Source: Escherichia coli
GTDB taxonomy: Bacteria > Pseudomonadota > Gammaproteobacteria > Enterobacterales > Enterobacteriaceae
Strand: one strand, 5' to 3'
DNA: 64,000 bases
NCBI RefSeq assembly: GCF_024298765.1
Contig: NZ_CP101210.1
This document shows positions 3,037 through 18,993 of the stretch, piece by piece. Position 1 is the first letter of the stretch, and each line of letters opens with the position of its first letter. Made by a program: the position numbers and the translations under genes. Below the pieces are notes generated by a model. That model did no database searches. It saw only the letters and a program-made list of their open reading frames with translations, and had not been told where the DNA came from.

Positions 3037-4836
3037 ATGACGACACAGGTCCCACCTTCCGCGTTGCTTCCGTTGAACCCGGAGCAACTGGCACGCCTTC
3101 AGGCGGCCACGACCGATTTAACTCCTACCCAGCTTGCCTGGGTTTCTGGCTATTTCTGGGGCGTGCTCAACCAGCAGCCTGCTGCGCTTGCAGCGACGCC
3201 AGCGCCCGCCGCAGAAATGCCGGGTATAACTATTATCTCCGCTTCGCAAACCGGCAATGCGCGCCGGGTTGCTGAAGCATTACGCGATGATTTATTAGCG
3301 GCAAAACTGAACGTTAAGCTGGTGAACGCGGGCGACTATAAATTCAAACAAATCGCCAGCGAAAAACTGCTCATCGTGGTGACGTCAACGCAAGGGGAAG
3401 GGGAACCGCCGGAAGAAGCCGTCGCGCTGCATAAGTTCCTGTTCTCCAAAAAAGCGCCAAAGCTGGAAAACACTGCATTTGCCGTGTTTAGCCTCGGCGA
3501 TAGCTCTTATGAATTTTTCTGCCAGTCCGGGAAAGATTTTGACAGCAAGCTGGCGGAACTGGGCGGTGAACGCCTGCTCGACCGTGTCGATGCCGACGTT
3601 GAATACCAGGCTGCTGCCATCGAGTGGCGCGCCCGCGTGGTTGATGCGCTTAAATCGCGTGCGCCTGTCACGGCACCTTCGCAATCCGTCGCTACTGGCG
3701 CGGTAAATGAAATCCACACCAGCCCGTACAGCAAAGACGCGCCGCTGGTGGCGAGCCTTTCGGTTAACCAGAAAATTACCGGGCGTAACTCTGAAAAAGA
3801 CGTTCGCCATATCGAAATTGACTTAGGTGACTCTGGCCTGCGTTACCAGCCGGGTGACGCGCTGGGCGTCTGGTATCAGAACGATCCGGCACTGGTGAAA
3901 GAACTTGTCGAACTGCTGTGGCTGAAAGGCGATGAACCTGTCACCGTTGACGGCAAAACGCTGACCCTGAGCGAAGCGCTACAGTGGCACTTTGAACTGA
4001 CCGTCAACACCGCGAATATTGTTGAGAACTACGCCACGCTTACCCGCAGCGAAACGCTGCTGCCGCTGGTGGGCGATAAAGCGAAGTTACAGCATTACGC
4101 CGCGACCACGCCGATTGTTGACATGGTGCGTTTCTCTCCGGCGCAACTGGATGCCGAAGCGCTGATTAACCTGCTGCGCCCGCTGACCCCGCGCCTGTAT
4201 TCCATCGCCTCCTCGCAGGCGGAAGTCGAGAACGAAGTACACGTCACCGTTGGCGTGGTGCGTTACGACGTGGAAGGCCGCGCCCGTGCCGGTGGTGCCT
4301 CCAGCTTCCTTGCGGACCGCGTGGAAGAAGAGGGCGAAGTCCGCGTATTTATCGAACATAACGACAACTTCCGCCTGCCAGCCAACCCAGAAACCCCGGT
4401 GATTATGATTGGCCCAGGCACCGGCATCGCGCCGTTCCGCGCCTTTATGCAGCAACGCGCCGCCGACGAAGCGCCGGGGAAAAACTGGCTGTTCTTTGGC
4501 AACCCGCACTTTACGGAAGATTTCCTCTACCAGGTGGAATGGCAGCGCTACGTCAAAGAGGGCGTGCTGACGCGTATCGATCTTGCCTGGTCGCGCGATC
4601 AAAAAGAAAAAATTTACGTACAAGACAAACTGCGCGAACAGGGCGCGGAGCTGTGGCGCTGGATCAATGACGGTGCCCATATTTATGTCTGCGGCGACGC
4701 TAATCGCATGGCGAAAGACGTTGAGCAGGCACTTCTGGAAGTGATTGCCGAATTTGGTGGCATGGACACCGAAGCGGCGGATGAATTTTTAAGTGAGCTG
4801 CGCGTAGAGCGCCGTTATCAGCGAGATGTCTACTAA
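3037..4836 (+). CDS. cysJ: sulfite reductase [NADPH] flavoprotein alpha subunit
   Basis: 599-aa ORF; recognised CysJ sequence; flavodoxin and FAD/NADPH domains; followed by overlapping cysI (TAATG). Confidence 0.95.
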
Positions 4837-6548
4837 TGAGCGAAAAACATCCAGGGCCTTTAGTGGTCGAAGGAAAACTGACAGACGCCGAGCGCATGAA
4901 GCTTGAAAGCAACTACCTGCGCGGCACCATTGCGGAAGATTTAAACGACGGTCTGACCGGCGGCTTTAAGGGCGACAACTTCCTGCTGATCCGCTTCCAC
5001 GGCATGTATCAGCAGGATGACCGCGACATCCGCGCCGAACGTGCTGAACAGAAGCTGGAGCCGCGCCACGCGATGCTGTTGCGCTGCCGTCTGCCGGGTG
5101 GCGTGATCACCACCAAACAGTGGCAGGCGATAGACAAATTTGCCGGTGAAAACACCATCTATGGCAGCATTCGCCTGACCAACCGCCAGACGTTTCAGTT
5201 CCACGGCATTCTGAAAAAGAACGTCAAACCGGTGCACCAGATGCTGCACTCGGTCGGCCTTGATGCGCTGGCGACTGCTAACGACATGAACCGTAACGTA
5301 CTCTGCACCTCGAACCCTTACGAGTCGCAACTGCACGCGGAAGCATATGAATGGGCGAAGAAAATCTCTGAACATCTGCTGCCTCGTACCCGCGCGTATG
5401 CGGAGATCTGGCTCGATCAGGAAAAAGTCGCCACTACTGATGAAGAGCCGATCCTTGGTCAGACCTACCTGCCGCGTAAGTTCAAAACCACGGTAGTGAT
5501 CCCGCCGCAGAACGATATCGATCTGCACGCCAACGACATGAACTTCGTGGCAATCGCCGAAAACGGCAAGCTGGTGGGCTTTAACCTGCTGGTGGGCGGT
5601 GGGCTTTCCATCGAACATGGCAACAAGAAAACCTACGCCCGCACGGCGAGTGAGTTTGGCTATCTGCCGCTGGAGCATACGTTGGCAGTGGCGGAAGCCG
5701 TCGTGACAACTCAGCGTGACTGGGGTAACCGAACCGATCGTAAAAATGCCAAAACCAAATACACGCTGGAGCGCGTAGGGGTTGAGACGTTTAAAGCGGA
5801 AGTTGAACGTCGCGCGGGGATCAAATTCGAGCCGATTCGCCCGTATGAGTTTACCGGACGCGGCGATCGTATTGGCTGGGTTAAGGGCATTGATGATAAC
5901 TGGCACCTGACGCTGTTTATCGAAAATGGTCGCATTCTTGATTATCCGGGACGTCCGCTGAAAACCGGCTTGCTGGAGATCGCGAAGATCCACAAAGGTG
6001 ATTTCCGCATTACGGCGAACCAGAATCTGATCATCGCCGGCGTGCCGGAAAGCGAGAAAGCGAAGATCGAGAAGGTCGCCAAAGAAAGCGGGTTAATGAA
6101 TGCCGTCACGCCGCAGCGTGAAAACTCAATGGCCTGCGTGTCATTCCCGACTTGCCCGCTGGCGATGGCGGAAGCGGAGCGTTTCCTACCGTCTTTTATC
6201 GACAACATCGATAATTTAATGGCGAAACATGGTGTCAGCGATGAGCATATCGTGATGCGTGTAACAGGCTGCCCGAACGGTTGTGGTCGCGCGATGCTGG
6301 CGGAAGTGGGTCTGGTGGGGAAAGCGCCGGGTCGCTACAACCTGCATCTTGGCGGCAACCGCATTGGGACACGTATCCCACGGATGTATAAAGAAAACAT
6401 CACCGAGCCGGAAATCCTGGCGTCGCTTGATGAACTGATAGGGCGCTGGGCGAAAGAGCGCGAAGCGGGTGAAGGCTTCGGCGACTTTACGGTGCGTGCG
6501 GGCATCATTCGCCCGGTGCTCGATCCGGCGCGCGATTTGTGGGATTAA
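4836..6548 (+). CDS. cysI: sulfite reductase hemoprotein beta subunit
   Basis: 570-aa ORF; recognised CysI sequence with siroheme/4Fe-4S cysteine motifs ([19 protein letters not shown]). Confidence 0.95.
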
Positions 6549-6564: not shown

Positions 6565-6600
6565 GTAGGCCTGATAAGACGCGTGAGCGTCGCATCAGGC
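6565..6600. repeat. REP palindromic element
   Basis: Palindrome GCCTGATAAGACGCGTGAGCGTCGCATCAGGC in the cysI-cysH intergenic region. Confidence 0.6.
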
Positions 6601-6621
6601 AAGGCAAACAGTGAGGAATCT

Positions 6622-7356: not shown

Positions 7357-7373
7357 ATATTGCCGGATAAATT

Positions 7374-7410
7374 AAACGCCCCTGTCAGAAATGATGGGGC
7401 GTTTTTATTT
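7374..7410 (+). terminator. Rho-independent terminator after cysH
   Basis: Hairpin AAACGCCCC / GGGGCGTTT followed by a T-run, read directly from the sequence. Confidence 0.6.
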
Positions 7411-7524
7411 TGCGAGCAGCATTCCGGCATTTAAAGGTGAACATCGCAGGGAGAATTAACAGGTATAGAATGGAGTTGGGTGCTTGAGGCTGTCTGGCGT
7501 TAAGCATTCGCGAGGTTCCAGATG

Positions 7525-7582
7525 GACAAAAGCCCCAGGCGATATTTCTATCAACCTGAGGCCAGCGTTCGAACCTAAGCAA
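7525..7582 (-). ncRNA. Sok-like antisense RNA of a hok/sok-type locus (predicted)
   Basis: On the minus strand: candidate -35 TTGCCT (plus 7611-7616) and -10 TAACAT (plus 7588-7593) with 17-bp spacing, then a ~57-nt transcript ending in hairpin GCCUCAGG...CCUGGGGC plus CUUUUGU. Size matches the Sok antisense RNA family; boundaries inferred. Confidence 0.4.
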
Positions 7583-7619
7583 TTCGAATGTTAGTCTCTT
7601 CTTTGCAGGGAGGCAAGAC

Positions 7620-7772
7620 ATGCTGACAAAATATGCCCTTGTGGCAATCATCGTACTGTGTTGTACAGTACTGGGATTCACGCTGATGGTAGGCGACTCG
7701 TTGTGTGAGTTGAGTATCAGAGAACGTGGTATGGAGTTTAAGGCAGTTCTCGCTTACGAATCGAAGAAGTAG
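7620..7772 (+). CDS. Hok/Gef family small membrane toxin (type I toxin)
   Basis: 50-aa ORF below the track length cutoff, read by hand: [50 protein letters not shown]. Hydrophobic N-terminal helix plus the conserved DSLCEL...AYES pattern of Hok family toxins; RBS GGGAGG upstream. Confidence 0.7.
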
Positions 7773-7778
7773 CCACCA

Positions 7779-7798
7779 CGCGGGGGTAAAACCCCGCG
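7779..7798 (+). other. Stable stem-loop at the 3' end of the hok-like mRNA (possible fold-back element)
   Basis: CGCGGGG-TAAAA-CCCCGCG perfect hairpin a few nt after the hok stop codon. Confidence 0.4.
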
Positions 7799-8009
7799 TA
7801 CTGAATTGTGATGGTTTGGTCTCCTGCACCCTTTTTTAATTTATATTGTTTATGTGAATATTATGCCTATGTTTATTATTTATATATATTATGGATGAAA
7901 ATCATTTAATTATTCACAATGTAAATATTTTATTGAAAGATATATGTCACAGATAATTTTTAATATATGCGTGAATATCCTTTAAGTTTTACTGAAGGAT
8001 AAAAATATT

Positions 8010-10667
8010 GTGACTTTCTTTTATTTCTGGGGAAAAACCCGACGCGGCGAGAAAGACGGGGGCGAAGACTATCACCTTCTTTGCTGGCATTCGCTGGATG
8101 TAGCCGCGATGGGCTATTTAATGGTTAAAAGCAATTGCTTCGGACTGGCTGGCTATTTTCGTCAATTAGGTTTCGCTGACACGGAGCTGGCAGCACAATT
8201 TTTCGCCTGGCTGCTGTGCTGGCACGATATTGGAAAATTTGCCCGCTCTTTTCAGCAACTTTACCTGCACCCACAACTCAAGGTTCCGGAAGGCGCAAGA
8301 AAGAATTACGAAAAGATCTCTCATTCAACGCTGGGCTACTGGTTGTGGAACCATTATTTAAGTGAATGTCAGGAGTTGCTTCCTTCATCTTCACTCTCTC
8401 CGCGCAAACTTAAACGGGTGATGGAGATGTGGATGCCCATGACTACCGGGCATCATGGTCGACCCCCTGAGCGTATGGATGAACTGGATAATTTTCTGCC
8501 TGAAGACAAAGGTGCCGCACGAGATTTTCTCCTTGCAATCAAGGTACTGTTTCCGCTCATAGAGATCCCCACATTCTGGGATGATGACGAGGGCGTTGAA
8601 CTTATAAAACAACTTTCCTGGTATATCTCTGCAACCGTCGTACTTGCAGACTGGACGGGATCGTCAACGCGATATTTTCCACGCGTTGCACAGGCAATGG
8701 ATATTGAAGATTACTGGCAGAAAACTTTAGTTCAGGCTCAAAACGCCTTAACCGTCTTTCCTCCAAAAGCAGAAAGCGCGCCTTTCACCGGAATTAATAC
8801 GCTGTTTCCTTTTATTGAGAATCCGACACCGCTACAGCAAAAGGTGCTGGATCTGGATATCAGCCAGCCGGGACCACAGTTATTTATTCTGGAGGATGTA
8901 ACCGGCGCAGGTAAAACAGAAGCGGCGCTTATCCTGGCGCACAGGTTGATGGCTGCGGGGAAAGCGCAGGGTTTGTTTTTTGGCCTGCCAACAATGGCAA
9001 CGGCCAATGCCATGTACGATCGACTGGTCAAAACCTGGCTTGCTTTCTATTCGCCAGAGTCCCGCCCCAGCCTGGTGCTGGCACACAGTGCCCGAACATT
9101 AATGGACCGCTTTAATGAATCACTCTGGTCCGGTGATTTAGTCGGGTCAGAAGAACCGGATGAACAAACGTTCAGTCAGGGATGTGCGGCCTGGTTTGCC
9201 GACAGTAACAAGAAGGCGCTACTGGCTGAAATTGGCGTCGGCACGCTGGATCAGGCGATGATGGCTGTGATGCCGTTCAAACATAATAATCTGCGGCTTC
9301 TGGGACTGAGTAACAAAATCCTGCTGGCTGATGAGATCCATGCCTGTGACGCTTACATGTCATGCATTCTTGAAGGGCTGATCGAGCGGCAGGCGCGTGG
9401 CGGAAACAGCGTCATTTTGCTTTCTGCCACGTTATCTCAACAGCAGCGCGACAAACTCGTCGCCGCCTTTGCGCGTGGTATAGAGGGCCAGCAAGAAGCT
9501 CCGTTGCTGGAAAAGGATGATTACCCCTGGCTGACGCACGTTACGAAATCCGATGTGCATTCACACCGGGTAGCGACGCGCAAAGACGTTGAGCGCAGCG
9601 TGAGTGTGGGTTGGCTTCATAGCGAACAAGAGTGTATTGCGCGTATCGAATCGGCGGTAAGTCAGGGGAAATGTATCGCCTGGATCCGAAATTCTGTCGA
9701 TGACGCCATCCAGGTTCATCGTCAGTTACTTGCCCGCGGCGTCATTCCTGCTTCCAGCCTTTCACTTTTTCATAGCCGCTTTGCTTTTAGCGATCGCCAG
9801 CGAATTGAAACGGAGACGCTGGCACGCTTTGGTAAAGAAGACTGTTCACAGCGTGCCGGAAAAGTCCTCATTTGTACTCAAGTCCTGGAGCAGAGCGTTG
9901 ACTGCGACCTGGACGAAATGATTTCCGACCTTGCCCCTGTTGATTTACTGATCCAGCGGGCGGGGCGATTACAGCGGCATATCCGCGATATTAATGGTCT
10001 GTTAAAGCGTGACGGAAAAGACGAGCGTTCCCCTCCTGAATTTCTGATTCTGGCTCCCGTCTGGGACGACTCTCCGGGTGACGAATGGTTTGGCAGCGCC
10101 ATGCGTAACAGTGCATATGTCTACCCCGATCATGGGCGAATCTGGCTGACGCAGCGTGTGCTGCGTGAGCAAGGCGCTATTCAGATGCCACACGCAGCCC
10201 GGCTTCTTATTGAATCAGTCTACGGTGAAGACGTGGCAATGCCGGAAGGATTTGCCCGCAGTGAGCAGGAGCAAGTGGGCAAATATTACTGCGATCGCGC
10301 AATGGCTAAAAAGTTTGTCCTGAACTTCAAGCCTGGCTATGCCGCCAATATCAACGATTACCTTCCGGAAAAGCTGTCGACACGTCTGGCTGAGGAATCT
10401 GTTTCCCTGTGGCTGGCTACCTGTATTGACGGTGTGGTGAAGCCTTATGCCACCGGTGCTCACGCATGGGAAATGAGCGTTGTCAGAGTGCGTCGAAGCT
10501 GGTGGAAAAAACATCGGGATGAGTTTTCTTTACTGGAAGGGGATGCGTTCAGGCAGTGGTGCATTGAACAGCGGCAAGATCCGGAGATGGCAAACGTGAT
10601 TTTAGTCACCGATGACGAAAGTTGCGGGTATTCGGCTATGGAAGGATTGACTGGCAAGGTTGGTTGA
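8010..10667 (+). CDS. cas3: CRISPR-associated helicase/nuclease Cas3 (type I-E)
   Basis: 885-aa ORF starting at GTG 8010 (AAGGA 10 nt upstream); HD-nuclease-like N-terminus (H..LDVAA, HDIGK) and DEAD/DEAH helicase motifs (GAGKTEAA, DEIH); first gene of the cas operon. Confidence 0.9.
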   Translation: MTFFYFWGKTRRGEKDGGEDYHLLCWHSLDVAAMGYLMVKSNCFGLAGYFRQLGFADTELAAQFFAWLLCWHDIGKFARSFQQLYLHPQLKVPEGARKNYEKISHSTLGYWLWNHYLSECQELLPSSSLSPRKLKRVMEMWMPMTTGHHGRPPERMDELDNFLPEDKGAARDFLLAIKVLFPLIEIPTFWDDDEGVELIKQLSWYISATVVLADWTGSSTRYFPRVAQAMDIEDYWQKTLVQAQNALTVFPPKAESAPFTGINTLFPFIENPTPLQQKVLDLDISQPGPQLFILEDVTGAGKTEAALILAHRLMAAGKAQGLFFGLPTMATANAMYDRLVKTWLAFYSPESRPSLVLAHSARTLMDRFNESLWSGDLVGSEEPDEQTFSQGCAAWFADSNKKALLAEIGVGTLDQAMMAVMPFKHNNLRLLGLSNKILLADEIHACDAYMSCILEGLIERQARGGNSVILLSATLSQQQRDKLVAAFARGIEGQQEAPLLEKDDYPWLTHVTKSDVHSHRVATRKDVERSVSVGWLHSEQECIARIESAVSQGKCIAWIRNSVDDAIQVHRQLLARGVIPASSLSLFHSRFAFSDRQRIETETLARFGKEDCSQRAGKVLICTQVLEQSVDCDLDEMISDLAPVDLLIQRAGRLQRHIRDINGLLKRDGKDERSPPEFLILAPVWDDSPGDEWFGSAMRNSAYVYPDHGRIWLTQRVLREQGAIQMPHAARLLIESVYGEDVAMPEGFARSEQEQVGKYYCDRAMAKKFVLNFKPGYAANINDYLPEKLSTRLAEESVSLWLATCIDGVVKPYATGAHAWEMSVVRVRRSWWKKHRDEFSLLEGDAFRQWCIEQRQDPEMANVILVTDDESCGYSAMEGLTGKVG

Positions 10668-16625: not shown

Positions 16626-17935
16626 GTGTTCCCCGCGCCAGCGGGGATAAACCGCATTGAAAACATTGCCTTTATTTTATTTTTTGGTGTTCCCCGCGCC
16701 AGCGGGGATAAACCGGTGCCGCCGCTGGGCACTTCCTTCCCGTGAGTGTGTTCCCCGCGCCAGCGGGGATAAACCGCCCTGATAGCGTCCAGTTGAATGC
16801 GCGCCCGCGTGTTCCCCGCGCCAGCGGGGATAAACCGGCAGGCACGGGCAATATCAGACTCGGTCAAAGGTGTTCCCCGCGCCAGCGGGGATAAACCGCT
16901 CGGTTGTTTTCATATTACCGGCCTGCCACTGTGTTCCCCGCGCCAGCGGGGATAAACCGACAATATCCCGGACCGGGCGCTGATTTAGTCAGTGTTCCCC
17001 GCGCCAGCGGGGATAAACCGCGGACGGTGGGAATATAGAAAATCCGTCCACCGTGTTCCCCGCGCCAGCGGGGATAAACCGTTATACTCTTTTCATCGAC
17101 TAAGGAGGGGAGGGTGTTCCCCGCGCCAGCGGGGATAAACCGCAATAACGCAGCATCCAGGAAGCTGTTTCCGCGTGTTCCCCGCGCCAGCGGGGATAAA
17201 CCGCGATCGGTGAAGAGGTCCGCGAAATACTCACTGTGTTCCCCGCGCCAGCGGGGATAAACCGGCGATAGTTGATTCAGCCGCGCCAGCGAATGTGTGT
17301 TCCCCGCGCCAGCGGGGATAAACCGGGGCCGCCGCGAATTTACACACGATTCAATACGTGTTCCCCGCGCCAGCGGGGATAAACCGAACTGGTGCGCGAC
17401 GGCTGGCTAACAAAACGAGTGTTCCCCGCGCCAGCGGGGATAAACCGCGTGGCTGCGCTGGCCGTTGCAGCAGTTTGATGTGTTCCCCGCGCCAGCGGGG
17501 ATAAACCGCGTAAACGCCCCGTCGCCATTAATTTCGGGGTGTGTTCCCCGCGCCAGCGGGGATAAACCGTGGGATGAGCAAATAACGTCGTTTCCTAGAA
17601 AGTGTTCCCCGCGCCAGCGGGGATAAACCGCCGCCGTGCCAGTGATCCTCATACGGCCTGTTGTGTTCCCCGCGCCAGCGGGGATAAACCGAAATTAAGA
17701 ACGGCGTAAACGACGGCAGCATGGTGTTCCCCGCGCCAGCGGGGATAAACCGGTGATGATTCAGAGCAGACATTAGCCCGCGCTGTGTTCCCCGCGCCAG
17801 CGGGGATAAACCGGGTAAAAACACGGTCTGAACCGACATTCATGTGTGTTCCCCGCGTCAGCGGGGATAAACCGGACGCACTGGATGCGATGATGGATAT
17901 CACTTAGAATTCCCCGCCCCTGCGGTAGAACTCCC
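16626..17935 (+). CRISPR. Type I-E CRISPR array: 21 repeats of GTGTTCCCCGCGCCAGCGGGGATAAACCG plus a degenerate terminal repeat, 21 spacers of 32 nt
   Basis: Repeats counted by hand at 16626, 16687, 16748 ... 17846 with an exact 61-bp period. Repeat 21 (17846-17874) carries one substitution (GCGTCAGCG); the terminal repeat 17907-17935 (GAATTCCCCGCCCCTGCGGTAGAACTCCC) matches about 18/29. Confidence 0.97.
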
Positions 17936-17955: not shown

Positions 17956-18993
17956 TCAAGACGCCTTCGCCAGCTCCTTCACCAGCGGTAGCATTATCCG
18001 CATAACATCACGGCAGCGACGTTCTATTCTTCCTGGAAGTGCCTTATCAATATGTTGTTGATTATCCAGTCTTACGTCATGCCAGCTATTTCCCGCAGGG
18101 AATGCAGCTGTTTTTGCGCGTTGCTGATAACCATCCTTATTCCCAAGATTCCAATTTGTTGCTTCTACCGAAAGTACGGCAATACCGGCTTTGTCGAAAA
18201 CTTCGGCGTCATTACAACAGCCAGTACCCTTCGGATAATTTTTATTCAAACCCGGATTGGTCGTTGCGGCAATTCCATGACTACGCGCAATTGCCAGCGC
18301 CCTGTCGTGCGTTAATTTCCTTACTGCTTCAGGGGTTTTTACACCGCTGTTGAAATACAATTTATCGCCAACAATTAAGTTATCGAGATTAATCACCAGC
18401 AGCGTATTTTTCTTTTCGGTGTCACTCATCCGCTTGAGTAAATTCTCAGCGCCTAATTTTCCTTCCTCTTCGCCGCTGGTCGCCACAAATCGAATACCAT
18501 ACTCGGTAGGCGTATTTTTCAGGCGTTCAGCCAGTTCCAGCATGACACCTAAACCTGCGGCGTTATCATCCATTCCTTGTAACGTTAGCCCGCCGAGATT
18601 GGCATCGGCGTCAGCATCGCTCAGCGGGGCGTAAGTATCCAGATGCGCCATAATGATGATCTGCTGCGGCGCTTTGCCTTCATGAGCGGCAATCACCGTA
18701 CTTCCCGTCACGTTATGCCAGCTCTTGCGATTATCGCGGGCGGTATAAATATACCGACTATTAAATGTCCGAATATCACTGCGATAACCCATTTGCTGAA
18801 ACTGCTGGCGAATATAATCGGCAGATAACATTTCTGCAGGAGTTCCGGTCATGCGTCCCGGAAAGAAAGTAGCAATATGTCGTGCCTGGGTATTAGCAAA
18901 ATCGCCAGGTTTAGGTGACGAGGCGTGTACGGGGAGAATAAAGCATACGCCGAGCGCCAGGGCAGCGGTACGGTGGCGCAATGCGGAAAACAT
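17956..18993 (-). CDS. iap: alkaline phosphatase isozyme conversion aminopeptidase
   Basis: 345-aa ORF with signal peptide; recognised as Iap; convergent with the CRISPR array as in E. coli. Confidence 0.9.
   Translation of the reverse strand: MFSALRHRTAALALGVCFILPVHASSPKPGDFANTQARHIATFFPGRMTGTPAEMLSADYIRQQFQQMGYRSDIRTFNSRYIYTARDNRKSWHNVTGSTVIAAHEGKAPQQIIIMAHLDTYAPLSDADADANLGGLTLQGMDDNAAGLGVMLELAERLKNTPTEYGIRFVATSGEEEGKLGAENLLKRMSDTEKKNTLLVINLDNLIVGDKLYFNSGVKTPEAVRKLTHDRALAIARSHGIAATTNPGLNKNYPKGTGCCNDAEVFDKAGIAVLSVEATNWNLGNKDGYQQRAKTAAFPAGNSWHDVRLDNQQHIDKALPGRIERRCRDVMRIMLPLVKELAKAS

Follow-up and report, generated by a model that had tools for sequence, protein, structure and literature searches.

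Analysis of a 64,000-nucleotide stretch of Escherichia coli DNA (contig NZ_CP101210.1; hereafter the window) indicates that the locus between cysH and cas3 is, very probably, E. coli hokX/sokX, a chromosomal hok/sok-family type I toxin-antitoxin module that is complete in sequence. Judged by sequence and by comparison with related loci, the module comprises a 50-aa toxin gene under selection, an mRNA of ~360 nt with ends that can pair, complementarity between an mRNA loop and Sok, and a minus-strand SokX gene. A first-pass annotation, made from the letters of the window, had placed a hok/sok-type module with an intact toxin ORF at 7510-7800, and this proposal is supported, at the level of sequence, by Pfam, by an Rfam leader match, by long-range pairing of the tac and fbi elements of the mRNA, and by the position of sokX. 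The module is indeed present in that interval, but the functional unit is wider, and a useful point to be taken from the analysis is that the complete unit spans ~7466..7837. By analogy, we infer that HokX is toxic, that Sok is expressed, that the mRNA is processed at its 3' end, and that RNase III cleaves the duplex.

The hokX/sokX module is already known, including its ties to IS186 insertions and to variants of the type I-E CRISPR-Cas locus, and the find is correct but ordinary. The RefSeq label at 7620..7772 is "Hok/Gef family protein" (WP_000956458.1), the same label stands at the same position across thousands of E. coli genomes, and most E. coli strains carry hokX/sokX beside cysH, with cysH directly upstream and cas3 or iap downstream. 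Both the name hokX/sokX and the site between cysH and cas3/iap are in the literature (PMC12736100, PMC7232551, PMC3903273); the name is used for E. coli B, AIEC NRG857c, and UPEC, and ~90% of UPEC strains carry the module (PMC12736100). Absence of the toxin gene is confined to the K-12-type cas-E2 variant, and IS186 is inserted next to the locus (PMC3903273, PMC7232551); correspondingly, the module accompanies the cas-E1 variant and is lacking where the K-12 cas variant occurs (PMC3903273). The literature on hokX/sokX yielded no experiment on this locus. The window locus and the published locus occupy the same place (3' of cysH, before cas3/iap), encode proteins that are identical or nearly so, and show no difference of substance, the window having the full arrangement (hok, fbi, cas-E1). 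Outside correct annotation, the finding is of little import: the module is of a textbook type, is named, and is in RefSeq.

The toxin gene is as follows:

7620..7772, plus strand: hokX coding sequence, encoding a 50-aa Hok/Gef family membrane toxin (assigned by Pfam, by HokE identity, and by RefSeq)

The hydrophobic N-terminus, DSLCEL core, and AYES tail that the first-pass annotation had read in this ORF are all present. Pfam PF01848 (HOK_GEF) matches residues 5-46 of the protein over the full model (positions 1-42 of 42; E 6.3e-10), and HokX has the traits of the Hok/Gef family: a length of ~50 aa, a hydrophobic N-terminal TM segment, a conserved Cys in a (D/K)(S/D/T)LCE motif, and a C-terminal A(Y/C)(E/K/T) motif. 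Alignment with Hok family proteins, which had been proposed as a check, reveals significant similarity. The nearest K-12 paralogue is HokE (78% identity), followed by HokA (48%), HokC (39%), and HokB (33%), and most plasmid Hok proteins are ~42% identical to HokX; residues C14, T16, L28, E30, E39, and A45 are invariant in the alignment with K-12 HokA, HokB, HokC, and HokE, and DSLCEL and LAYES are present. HokX homologues number 318, with PF01848 and Hok names (nearly all of the 120 listed carry the PF01848 tag), and the best homologues among the matches listed have E values of ~1e-23. HokX scores 53 bits against the NCBIfam HokA equivalog model NF007290 (curated cut-off 89) and 39.5 bits against the NCBIfam Hok subfamily model NF007279 (curated cut-off 73). 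Because both scores are below the cut-offs, we assign HokX not to HokA but to a separate orthologue group nearest HokE.

To the window locus we compared 40 related loci from other enterobacterial species, in differing genomic contexts, giving a set of 41 loci. The 50-codon hok ORF is intact in 41 of the 41, the dN/dS ratio is 0.146 (0.155 when the codons that served in the search pattern are dropped), and the variable columns are distributed 21/14/39 over codon positions 1/2/3. We conclude from these comparisons that hokX is under clear purifying selection, with dN/dS ~0.15.

The features of the hok mRNA, in order along the plus strand, are as follows:

7466..7471, plus strand: probable hok -10 box TAGAAT, 6 nt 5' of the mRNA start; similarity between loci begins here
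7478..7837, plus strand: predicted full-length hok mRNA, ~355-360 nt, with 5' end at GGGTGC and 3' end at the T-run after fbi
7478..7490, plus strand: tac element GGGUGCUUGAGGC, the mRNA 5' end, with either fbi or ucb as pairing partner
7488..7527, plus strand: 5' leader stem-loop, with compensatory changes and present in the Rfam consensus structure
7530..7536, plus strand: ucb-like box AAGCCCC, paired with positions 1-8 in the Rfam consensus and assigned by analogy to plasmid R1
7558..7598, plus strand: Sok-target (sokT) hairpin, with a stem of 5 + 10 bp and GAGG (7558-7561) in its 5' arm
7608..7613, plus strand: hok Shine-Dalgarno GGGAGG, 6 nt 5' of the ATG and, on the opposite strand, overlapping the Sok -35
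7819..7831, plus strand: fbi element GUCUCCUGCACCC, able to pair with tac; a T-run (7832-7837) comes next, right after which similarity between loci ends

The ends of the predicted mRNA coincide with two kinds of boundary. The full-length hok-leader match to Rfam RF01794 starts at 7478 and scores 111.7 bits, as compared to a gathering score of 59 (E 5.5e-26), and conservation among the 41 loci runs from the hok promoter and stops abruptly after CACCC and the T-run. The hok promoter has a weak -35 (ATCGCA, 7443-7448), and TA..AT of the -10 box is kept among the 41 loci as TAGAAT, TAAGAT, TATGAT, or TACGAT. A scan for consensus promoters and terminators missed the hok promoter, the Sok promoter, and the Sok terminator, all of which lie just below its thresholds; all three are placed instead by homology and conservation. 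The Rfam 'sok' model marks the sense-strand hok mRNA leader, not the antisense RNA, and automated annotation based on this model would place 'sok' on the wrong strand. Minus-strand ORFs at 7575..7829 (84 aa) and 7385..7681 (98 aa) have no RefSeq annotation and lie antisense to the conserved coding and RNA unit.

The minimum-energy fold of the hok mRNA (-127.8 kcal/mol, z -2.98) joins the 5' end to the 3' end, and the tac-fbi pairing, which comprises 6 + 5 bp in the window, is part of this fold. Among the 41 loci, tac residues G1-C6, U8-A10, G12, and C13 are invariant, the 6-bp core of the tac-fbi helix has 99.6% of cells paired, and, in 15 loci, a change of U7 to C in tac is accompanied by a change of U to G in its fbi partner. 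Folding revealed no convincing local terminator hairpin in front of the 7832-7837 T-run, which is preceded by the long-range tac-fbi helix only. The ucb-like box may be the alternative partner of tac in processed mRNA, as in R1: 6 of the 7 tac-ucb pairs are invariant, and the pairing is possible in all loci. The leader stem-loop shows compensatory double changes at 7 of its 10 pairs, with 88.7% of cells paired in the 41 loci. The sokT hairpin has a local fold of -17.1 kcal/mol (z -3.9), with compensatory changes at 3 of 8 tested pairs, and its loop (7574-7582, CCUAAGCAA) can base-pair with the 7 nt at the 5' end of SokX and holds CUAA, a YUNR motif predicted to form a U-turn. The sequence GGAGGCAA at the hok Shine-Dalgarno is invariant in all 41 loci.

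A further structured element lies between the hok stop codon and fbi:

7778..7799, plus strand: GC-rich 3' hairpin of 8 bp with loop GUAAAA; not a terminator

This element corresponds to the perfect stem-loop that the first-pass annotation had placed at 7779..7798 (CGCGGGG/GTAAAA/CCCCGCG), with one further A-U pair (7778/7799); among the 41 loci, 96.9% of cells are paired and 2 pairs are compensatory. In other strains, the 3' hairpin is the insertion site of IS186/IS421. The IS junction in strain 17MR471, with GGGGGTAAAACCC on one side and ATAAGCGCT on the other, is of the same type as the junctions at K-12 hokC and hokE, and in E. coli B-type strains an IS lies within the 3' hairpin of hokX, whereas the window has an uninterrupted hairpin and fbi. 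An IS insertion that removes fbi is found in ~15% of E. coli genomes.

The antisense gene has two predicted features:

7588..7616, minus strand: SokX promoter, with -35 TTGCCT (7616..7611), a spacer of 17 nt, and -10 TAACAT (7593..7588)
7522..7580, minus strand: predicted SokX antisense RNA, ~55-59 nt, with 5' tail GCUUAGG..., placed from the K-12 sokX (b4701) annotation

The position of the SokX gene coincides with that of annotated K-12 sokX. The -35/-10 pair on the opposite strand and the antisense RNA of ~57 nt ending in a hairpin and U-run, both of which had been proposed from the letters, are found, with a predicted start at G7580; the terminator hairpin spans 7562..7532 and the U-run 7531..7528. 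The Sok -35 box and -10 positions T1, A2, A5, and T6 are invariant in the 41 loci, and folding of the antisense RNA, another proposed check, gives -22.7 kcal/mol (z -3.57). Because an antisense G-U pair reads as A-C on the sense strand, the Sok terminator was assessed in a separate antisense alignment, in which 92.6% of cells of the terminator hairpin are paired across 36 distinct sequences. The predicted gene has two weak points: the promoter matches just 8 of 12 consensus positions, under the 9-of-12 threshold of the scan, and the terminator U-run has just 4 U. Loci of the hok/sok family are defined, in part, by long-range tac-fbi pairing of the 5' and 3' mRNA ends, by a target hairpin having a YUNR motif and a loop complementary to the Sok 5' tail, and by a cis antisense gene that has its own promoter and terminator and overlaps the leader; each of these is found in the window at the level of sequence.

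By analogy to plasmid R1, tac-fbi pairing would keep full-length hok mRNA closed and inert; slow 3' trimming would take off fbi, upon which tac would re-pair with ucb; and the refolded mRNA would be open both to translation and to Sok binding. SokX, if abundant and unstable as in R1, would bind the hairpin loop, RNase III would cut the duplex, and no Hok would be made. A drop in SokX would, by the same analogy, allow Hok to enter the inner membrane and membrane potential to collapse.

The part of the R1 scheme that transfers least readily to the window concerns mok. A short ORF precedes hok:

7588..7626, plus strand: 12-codon leader ORF, in the +1 frame relative to hok, with its stop overlapping the hok ATG; role uncertain

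The first-pass annotation had described this ORF as resembling a shortened mok. The ORF is present, and its TGA (7624-7626) does overlap the hok start (ATGCTGA), but the interpretation as a shortened mok is poorly supported. According to that interpretation, the ORF is a true mok, ribosomes end at the TGA and restart at the hok ATG, and Sok blocks translation of the ORF. The stop-start overlap is typical of coupling; among the 40 related loci, 23 have a leader ATG in the +1 frame with the same spacing (1 shortened by an early stop), and 10 more have the ATG fused in frame to hok. However, no Shine-Dalgarno is present upstream of the 12-codon ORF, the ATG is part of the sokT stem (its 3' arm), and the frame relation to hok varies among loci. 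Nor does SokX, as had been proposed, cover the initiation region of the ORF: the predicted SokX start, 7580, falls 8 nt before the ATG (7588), which leaves the start codon uncovered, and Sok pairing with the 5' arm of the stem would free the ATG, not hide it. In addition, the leader ATG lies opposite part of the Sok -10 hexamer; A7588 and T7589 can be explained by the invariant -10 positions T6 and A5, whereas G7590 cannot, and G7590 is variable, the ATG being absent (ATA) in 7 of the 40 related loci. We consider a true shortened mok at this position to be somewhat unlikely.

In R1, hok has a long mok frame, translation of which is required for hok translation, and a hok/sok locus is expected to have a mok frame that starts within the Sok-covered region. 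In the window, the usual mok start position (7569-7571, behind the GAGG at 7558-7561) is TCG, and the 12-codon +1 ORF starts outside that region. The codon aligned to 7569-7571 is TCG or CCG in other Escherichia and Pseudocitrobacter hokX loci, in contrast to ATG in K-12 mokB and mokC and in the Klebsiella, Enterobacter, and Pluralibacter loci (9 of 40). Because the mok start is TCG, the 12-codon ORF has no Shine-Dalgarno, and its frame is not conserved, the requirement for mok translation may not apply here, and it is not obviously applicable to the hokX/hokE clade. The 7 related loci that have no mok-like ORF nevertheless keep hok, which suggests that the clade does not need mok. Given the lack of the usual mok start and the variation of the leader ATG among species (+1 frame, in-frame fusion, or no ATG), we propose, tentatively, that Hok translation in the hokX/hokE clade may be mok-independent, that SokX control may act solely through duplex-triggered mRNA decay and refolding, and that the leader ATG may be a mere complement of the Sok -10.

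Absence of the usual mok start also bears on whether Hok is made at all. The first-pass annotation had placed sokX, and no annotated toxin gene, at this position in K-12, and this was right: the cysH-cas3 gap of MG1655 is annotated with the ncRNA sokX (b4701) only. The comparison with the K-12 intergenic sequence that it had called for shows homology to the window up to the hok ATG and no further, K-12 keeping the leader and sokX only. Thus, hokX could be intact in sequence but silent or strongly attenuated in the window, Hok being made rarely or never because the usual mok position lacks a start codon, with the SokX RNA and the structured mRNA being mainly what persists functionally. The TCG at 7569-7571, TCG or CCG in its Escherichia and Pseudocitrobacter counterparts, and ATG in the other loci noted above fit such silence, as do the retention of the whole leader and sokX in K-12 without hok and the tolerance of fbi-removing IS insertions in the proportion of E. 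coli genomes given above. However, a dN/dS of ~0.15 and an intact ORF in every locus compared are hard to explain without any translation; hok has its own strong ribosome-binding site, with 6-nt spacing, that is invariant in all loci; and the retention of hok in the loci lacking a mok-like ORF suggests that mok is dispensable in the clade. We therefore regard a silent hokX as unlikely.

The AT-rich stretch upstream of cas3 that had been described is present (~7840-8000, 17-26% GC), and cas3 starts ~170 nt downstream of the module on the same strand. This proximity, the lack of a strong local terminator after the module (there being just tac-fbi and the T-run), and the presence of hokX with cas-E1 and its absence with the K-12 variant (PMC3903273) could suggest that the module is an addiction or guard element of the adjacent type I-E CRISPR-Cas system, or that it provides read-through into cas3. 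The distribution of the module argues against this. Strains without any cas genes keep the module beside cysH, in a cysH-hok-iap arrangement, as do strains in which IS421 took the place of the cas operon; K-12, conversely, has cas without hok; and in Pseudocitrobacter, Pluralibacter, and other genera the module is linked to cysH, not to cas3. With hok found without cas, cas found without hok, and the linkage being to cysH, we consider a CRISPR-Cas guard function highly improbable and reject it.

The closest paralogue of hokX/sokX is K-12 hokE/sokE, which has 78% protein identity to it and the same leader layout. The Sok 5' ends of the two loci are homologous, lying 40 nt before the hok ATG in hokX and 44 nt before it in hokE, and hokE shares the 3' hairpin, with IS186 at the same spot. 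The two loci differ in chromosomal site, hokE being on the ybdK side of the K-12 chromosome; in tac, which in hokE has C at position 7 and a compensating G in fbi; and in the leader, where an additional TATA (4 nt) ahead of the hok ATG brings the hokE leader ATG into the hok frame (MVVPSSHGGNIN-MLTKY...), whereas the hokX leader ATG is in the +1 frame.

The paradigm of the family is hok/sok (parB) of plasmid R1, the parts list of which, as generally known, is common to hokX/sokX. R1 hok/sok encodes a Hok/Gef toxin and has ucb, and its full-length mRNA is closed by tac-fbi pairing; its target hairpin is recognised by the 5' tail of a ~60-nt antisense RNA, and the Sok promoter overlaps the hok ribosome-binding region. 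R1 hok/sok is plasmid-borne, whereas hokX/sokX is chromosomal, and plasmid Hok proteins are only ~42% identical to HokX; intact chromosomal hok loci reportedly gave no post-segregational killing (Pedersen and Gerdes, 1999). R1 also has the long mok frame, whereas hokX has no start codon at the corresponding place. If Hok translation in the hokX/hokE clade is indeed mok-independent, the clade would represent a departure from the R1 paradigm inside the family.

The ORF at 7620..7772, read in the first-pass annotation as a 50-aa Hok/Gef toxin, is present in the sequence, and its product, HokX, matches the whole HOK_GEF model of Pfam (E 6.3e-10). A protein search with HokX returned 318 Hok/Gef proteins (top E ~1e-23), and Rfam model RF01794 gives a full-length match with a score of 111.7 bits versus a gathering score of 59. 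The hok/sok signals at this locus are not due to chance. They also mark a feature that is already known, since the hokX/sokX locus has been named and described previously. According to PMC7232551, the first report of hokX is from E. coli B, where the gene is inactivated by an insertion element, and AIEC NRG857c carries an intact hokX within the cysH-iap region; in a UPEC collection, hok and sokX both adjoin cysH 'In 90% of strains', the others being K-12-like (PMC12736100). Megablast with 7360-7860 matched 5,425 of 5,426 complete E. coli genomes, 4,146 of them with at least 80% query coverage, and the annotation under the match is 'Hok/Gef family protein' (in strain 104, WP_000956458.1, between cysH and cas3).

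To K-12 proteins, HokX shows identities of 78% (HokE), 48% (HokA), 39% (HokC), and 33% (HokB), and to most plasmid Hok proteins ~42%. In NCBIfam, it scores under the cut-offs of both the HokA and the Hok subfamily models, which places HokX in an orthologue group of its own and not in HokA. For comparative analysis, 41 DNA stretches were gathered from enterobacterial assemblies, one genome per species, with a degenerate pattern for EFKAVLAYE, and 40 complete hokX/hokE-type loci out of these were aligned with the window. The 50-codon hok ORF is intact in 41/41 loci, with 21, 14, and 39 variable columns at codon positions 1, 2, and 3. Mean dN/dS is 0.146, or 0.155 without the nine search-pattern codons, an estimate to be read with the caveat that the conserved peptide was the means of finding the loci; the low values indicate that HokX is under purifying selection.

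The similarity among the 41 loci starts at a probable −10 box, TAGAAT (7466-7471), 6 nt 5' of GGGTGC at 7478, and stops abruptly past CACCC and a T-run (7831 and 7832-7837). Because these limits are shared across differing genomic contexts, the unit is ~370 nt, from about 7466 to about 7837; the extent first proposed, 7510-7800, lies within the module and is too narrow. The unit contains the following elements, named after those of plasmid R1 hok/sok.

7478-7490, plus strand: tac, GGGUGCUUGAGGC, the predicted mRNA 5' end
7530-7536, plus strand: ucb-like AAGCCCC, alternative partner of tac
7558-7598, plus strand: sokT hairpin, 15 bp, with a 9-nt loop, CCUAAGCAA, carrying a YUNR motif (CUAA); fold z −3.9
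7608-7613, plus strand: hok ribosome-binding site GGGAGG, 6 nt 5' of the ATG, invariant
7778-7799, plus strand: GC-rich 3' hairpin after the hok stop, conserved, with 2 covarying pairs
7819-7831, plus strand: fbi, GUCUCCUGCACCC, partner of tac
7616..7611 and 7593..7588, minus strand: SokX promoter, −35 TTGCCT and −10 TAACAT, 17-nt spacer
7580..7522, minus strand: SokX, 59 nt, placed by mapping K-12 sokX onto the window

In the window, tac and fbi pair through 6 and 5 bp flanking a 2-nt mismatch, and the minimum-energy fold of 7478-7838 (−127.8 kcal/mol, z −2.98) is closed by exactly these ends. In the 6-bp core, 99.6% of cells are paired when all loci are compared, and with C in place of U at tac position 7 the partner is G in 15 loci. 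The alternative tac-ucb pairing encloses a stem-loop that shows compensatory double changes in 7 of its 10 pairs, and this structure is also present in the Rfam consensus; the sokT hairpin shows covariation in 3 of 8 tested pairs. The perfect stem-loop noted at 7779..7798 is present and extends to 7778/7799; having no U-run behind it, it is not a terminator.

The minus-strand −35/−10 pair and hairpin/U-run transcript read at first pass map to K-12 sokX. Transcription would start at G7580, 7 nt beyond the −10 box, and the RNA contains a hairpin (7562..7532) followed by a short U-run (7531..7528). The start of K-12 sokE is homologous: it lies 44 nt from the hokE ATG, versus 40 nt in the window, and a 4-nt insertion makes up the difference. 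SokX folds into a 5' tail and a long hairpin, then CUUUUG (−22.7 kcal/mol, z −3.57), and among 36 distinct sequences 92.6% of hairpin cells are paired, most pairs being invariant. The −35 box, which the hok ribosome-binding site overlaps on the opposite strand, and −10 positions T1, A2, A5, and T6 show no variation in 41/41 loci. The Sok promoter fits the consensus at only 8/12 positions and the Sok terminator has a short U-run, and both therefore escaped simple consensus scans. RF01794, named 'sok antitoxin (CssrC)', matches 7478-7635 on the plus strand, from the hok mRNA leader to the hok start region. The model thus covers the sense leader and not the ~59-nt minus-strand SokX, and 'sok' annotation derived from it is on the wrong strand and ~100 nt too long.

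The 12-codon ORF at 7588..7626 had been likened to a shortened mok with its initiation region covered by Sok. The ORF is present in the sequence and its TGA does overlap the hok ATG; the mok reading is not well supported, and the coverage does not hold. SokX begins at 7580, and ATG 7588 therefore lies outside SokX, in the 3' arm of the sokT stem. In the window, no Shine-Dalgarno sequence precedes this ATG. The ATG is common to 33/40 related loci and its frame is not conserved: 23 loci have it in the +1 frame with an overlapping TGA (1 shortened by an early stop) and 10 as an in-frame hok fusion, at 33- or 36-nt spacing; in the other 7 loci the codon is ATA. A7588 and T7589 stand opposite the invariant Sok −10 T6 and A5, and G7590 is variable. 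K-12 mokC and mokB begin 7-9 nt behind GAGG, on the 5' side of the hairpin. An ATG is found at that position in 9/40 related loci (Klebsiella, Enterobacter, Pluralibacter), and in 7 of these 17 codons run from it without a break into hok, giving the 67-aa database forms; the window codon (7569-7571) is TCG, and no in-frame start was found upstream of the hok ATG. It is unlikely that 7588..7626 is a working coupling frame. We conclude that the observation of the first-pass annotation is confirmed and that its reading as a hok/sok-type module is supported, by the Pfam and Rfam matches, the conserved RNA elements, and SokX, except for the mok detail and the unit extent.

From a further leader ATG, at 7522, an 18-codon frame runs to the stop TAA 7576 (plus-strand leader ORFs 7522-7578 and 7484-7594). 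K-12 and some other strains carry a loop variant, CCCAAAC, without this stop. Loss of the stop, together with small indels, leads gene callers to predict N-terminally extended 'Hok' proteins of 81-83 aa (database proteins P0006, P0007, and P0010), which are probably artefacts.

The module lies in the following surroundings.

4836..6548: cysI
to 7356: cysH, end
7380-7399: terminator-like hairpin of cysH
~7840-8000: AT-rich stretch, 17-26% GC, between the hok module and cas3
8010..10667: cas3, intact 885-aa ORF, GTG start
3' of cas3: remaining type I-E cas operon
16744-17511: CRISPR array downstream of the cas operon, repeat GTGTTCCCCGCGCCAGCGGGGATAAACCG, 61-nt period
17956..18993, minus strand: iap, after the CRISPR array, followed by cysDN

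This cas/CRISPR/iap layout corresponds to cas-E1 'arrangement A' of Almendros et al. 2014, and the window Cas3 differs from the K-12 variant. Strain 104 is 100% identical to the window over 7360-7860; in RefSeq its cas3 is frameshifted and its casA has an internal stop (stretch L001, 3608-6308), and the window cas3 is uninterrupted. The window thus comes from another strain or diverges from strain 104 further downstream. A REP-like palindrome in the cysI/cysH gap (6569-6601) matches naRNA4 (RF02564) below threshold on both strands (33.6 bits versus a gathering score of 59.5).

In K-12 MG1655, in agreement with the first-pass annotation, sokX (b4701, 2887353..2887411) is annotated, the only feature in the cysH-cas3 gap, and there is no toxin gene. 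Collinearity between K-12 and the window runs from cysH via the entire leader through the hok ATG, past which the two diverge completely; the junction (window 7620-7622; ~3314 in stretch L003) reads GGCAAGACATG/TGTATATC versus GGCAAGACATG/CTGACAAA. This boundary, exactly past the ATG, indicates that the K-12-type cas-E variant took the place of all sequence from hok codon 2 on and left K-12 with an orphan promoter, leader, and sokX.

A query comprising the hok 3' half, hairpin, and fbi (7700-7838) matched 4,220 of 5,426 complete E. coli genomes (78%), with at least 80% coverage, and hence a stretch contiguous through fbi, in 3,416 (63% of all). The remaining ~22% are K-12-like or without the region. 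Other E. coli strains have cysH-hok-iap without cas genes or CRISPR array, and similarity stops just past fbi. The cysH-linked module also occurs in other Escherichia species, Pseudocitrobacter, Pluralibacter, and one further enterobacterium; since only some of these cases have cas3 on the far side, the module belongs to the cysH flank and not to CRISPR-Cas. Stretches L024, L026, L034, and L035, from several species (an Enterobacter sp., Escherichia whittamii, and Klebsiella spallanzanii), each contain a pair of same-strand hokX/hokE-type loci ~500 bp apart (~1,200 bp in L035), as if the entire module had been duplicated locally. A hok-pattern match in Marinobacter sp. B9-2 (L015), on a 2.3-kb low-coverage contig, is probably enterobacterial contamination.

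In ~800 E. coli genomes (~15% of complete genomes), the match breaks off at ~7794, within the 3' hairpin. In 17MR471, an IS421/IS186-family element lies in this hairpin (junction GGGGGTAAAACCC/ATAAGCGCTAAC), the cas operon is absent, and no fbi sequence was found within the 5.4-kb stretch examined. K-12 hokC and hokE have an IS186 junction of the same kind. The hairpin is a recurrent IS186/IS421 target (window 7778-7799; stretches L049, 2925-2945, L004, and L006), and a GC-rich site beside hokX is the IS186 insertion point of Almendros et al. (PMC3903273), by whose account hokX accompanies the cas-E1 variant and is missing with the K-12 variant.

For the mechanism, we observe the elements and their conservation and infer all kinetic and functional steps by analogy with plasmid R1. 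Full-length hok mRNA would be locked by tac-fbi pairing; 3' trimming would free tac to pair with ucb, and the refolded RNA would be translatable and able to bind Sok. SokX would dock at the hairpin loop and RNase III would cleave the duplex, keeping Hok off; upon loss of SokX, Hok would depolarise the inner membrane. The first seven nt of SokX are complementary to the target-hairpin loop, as is known for R1 Sok.
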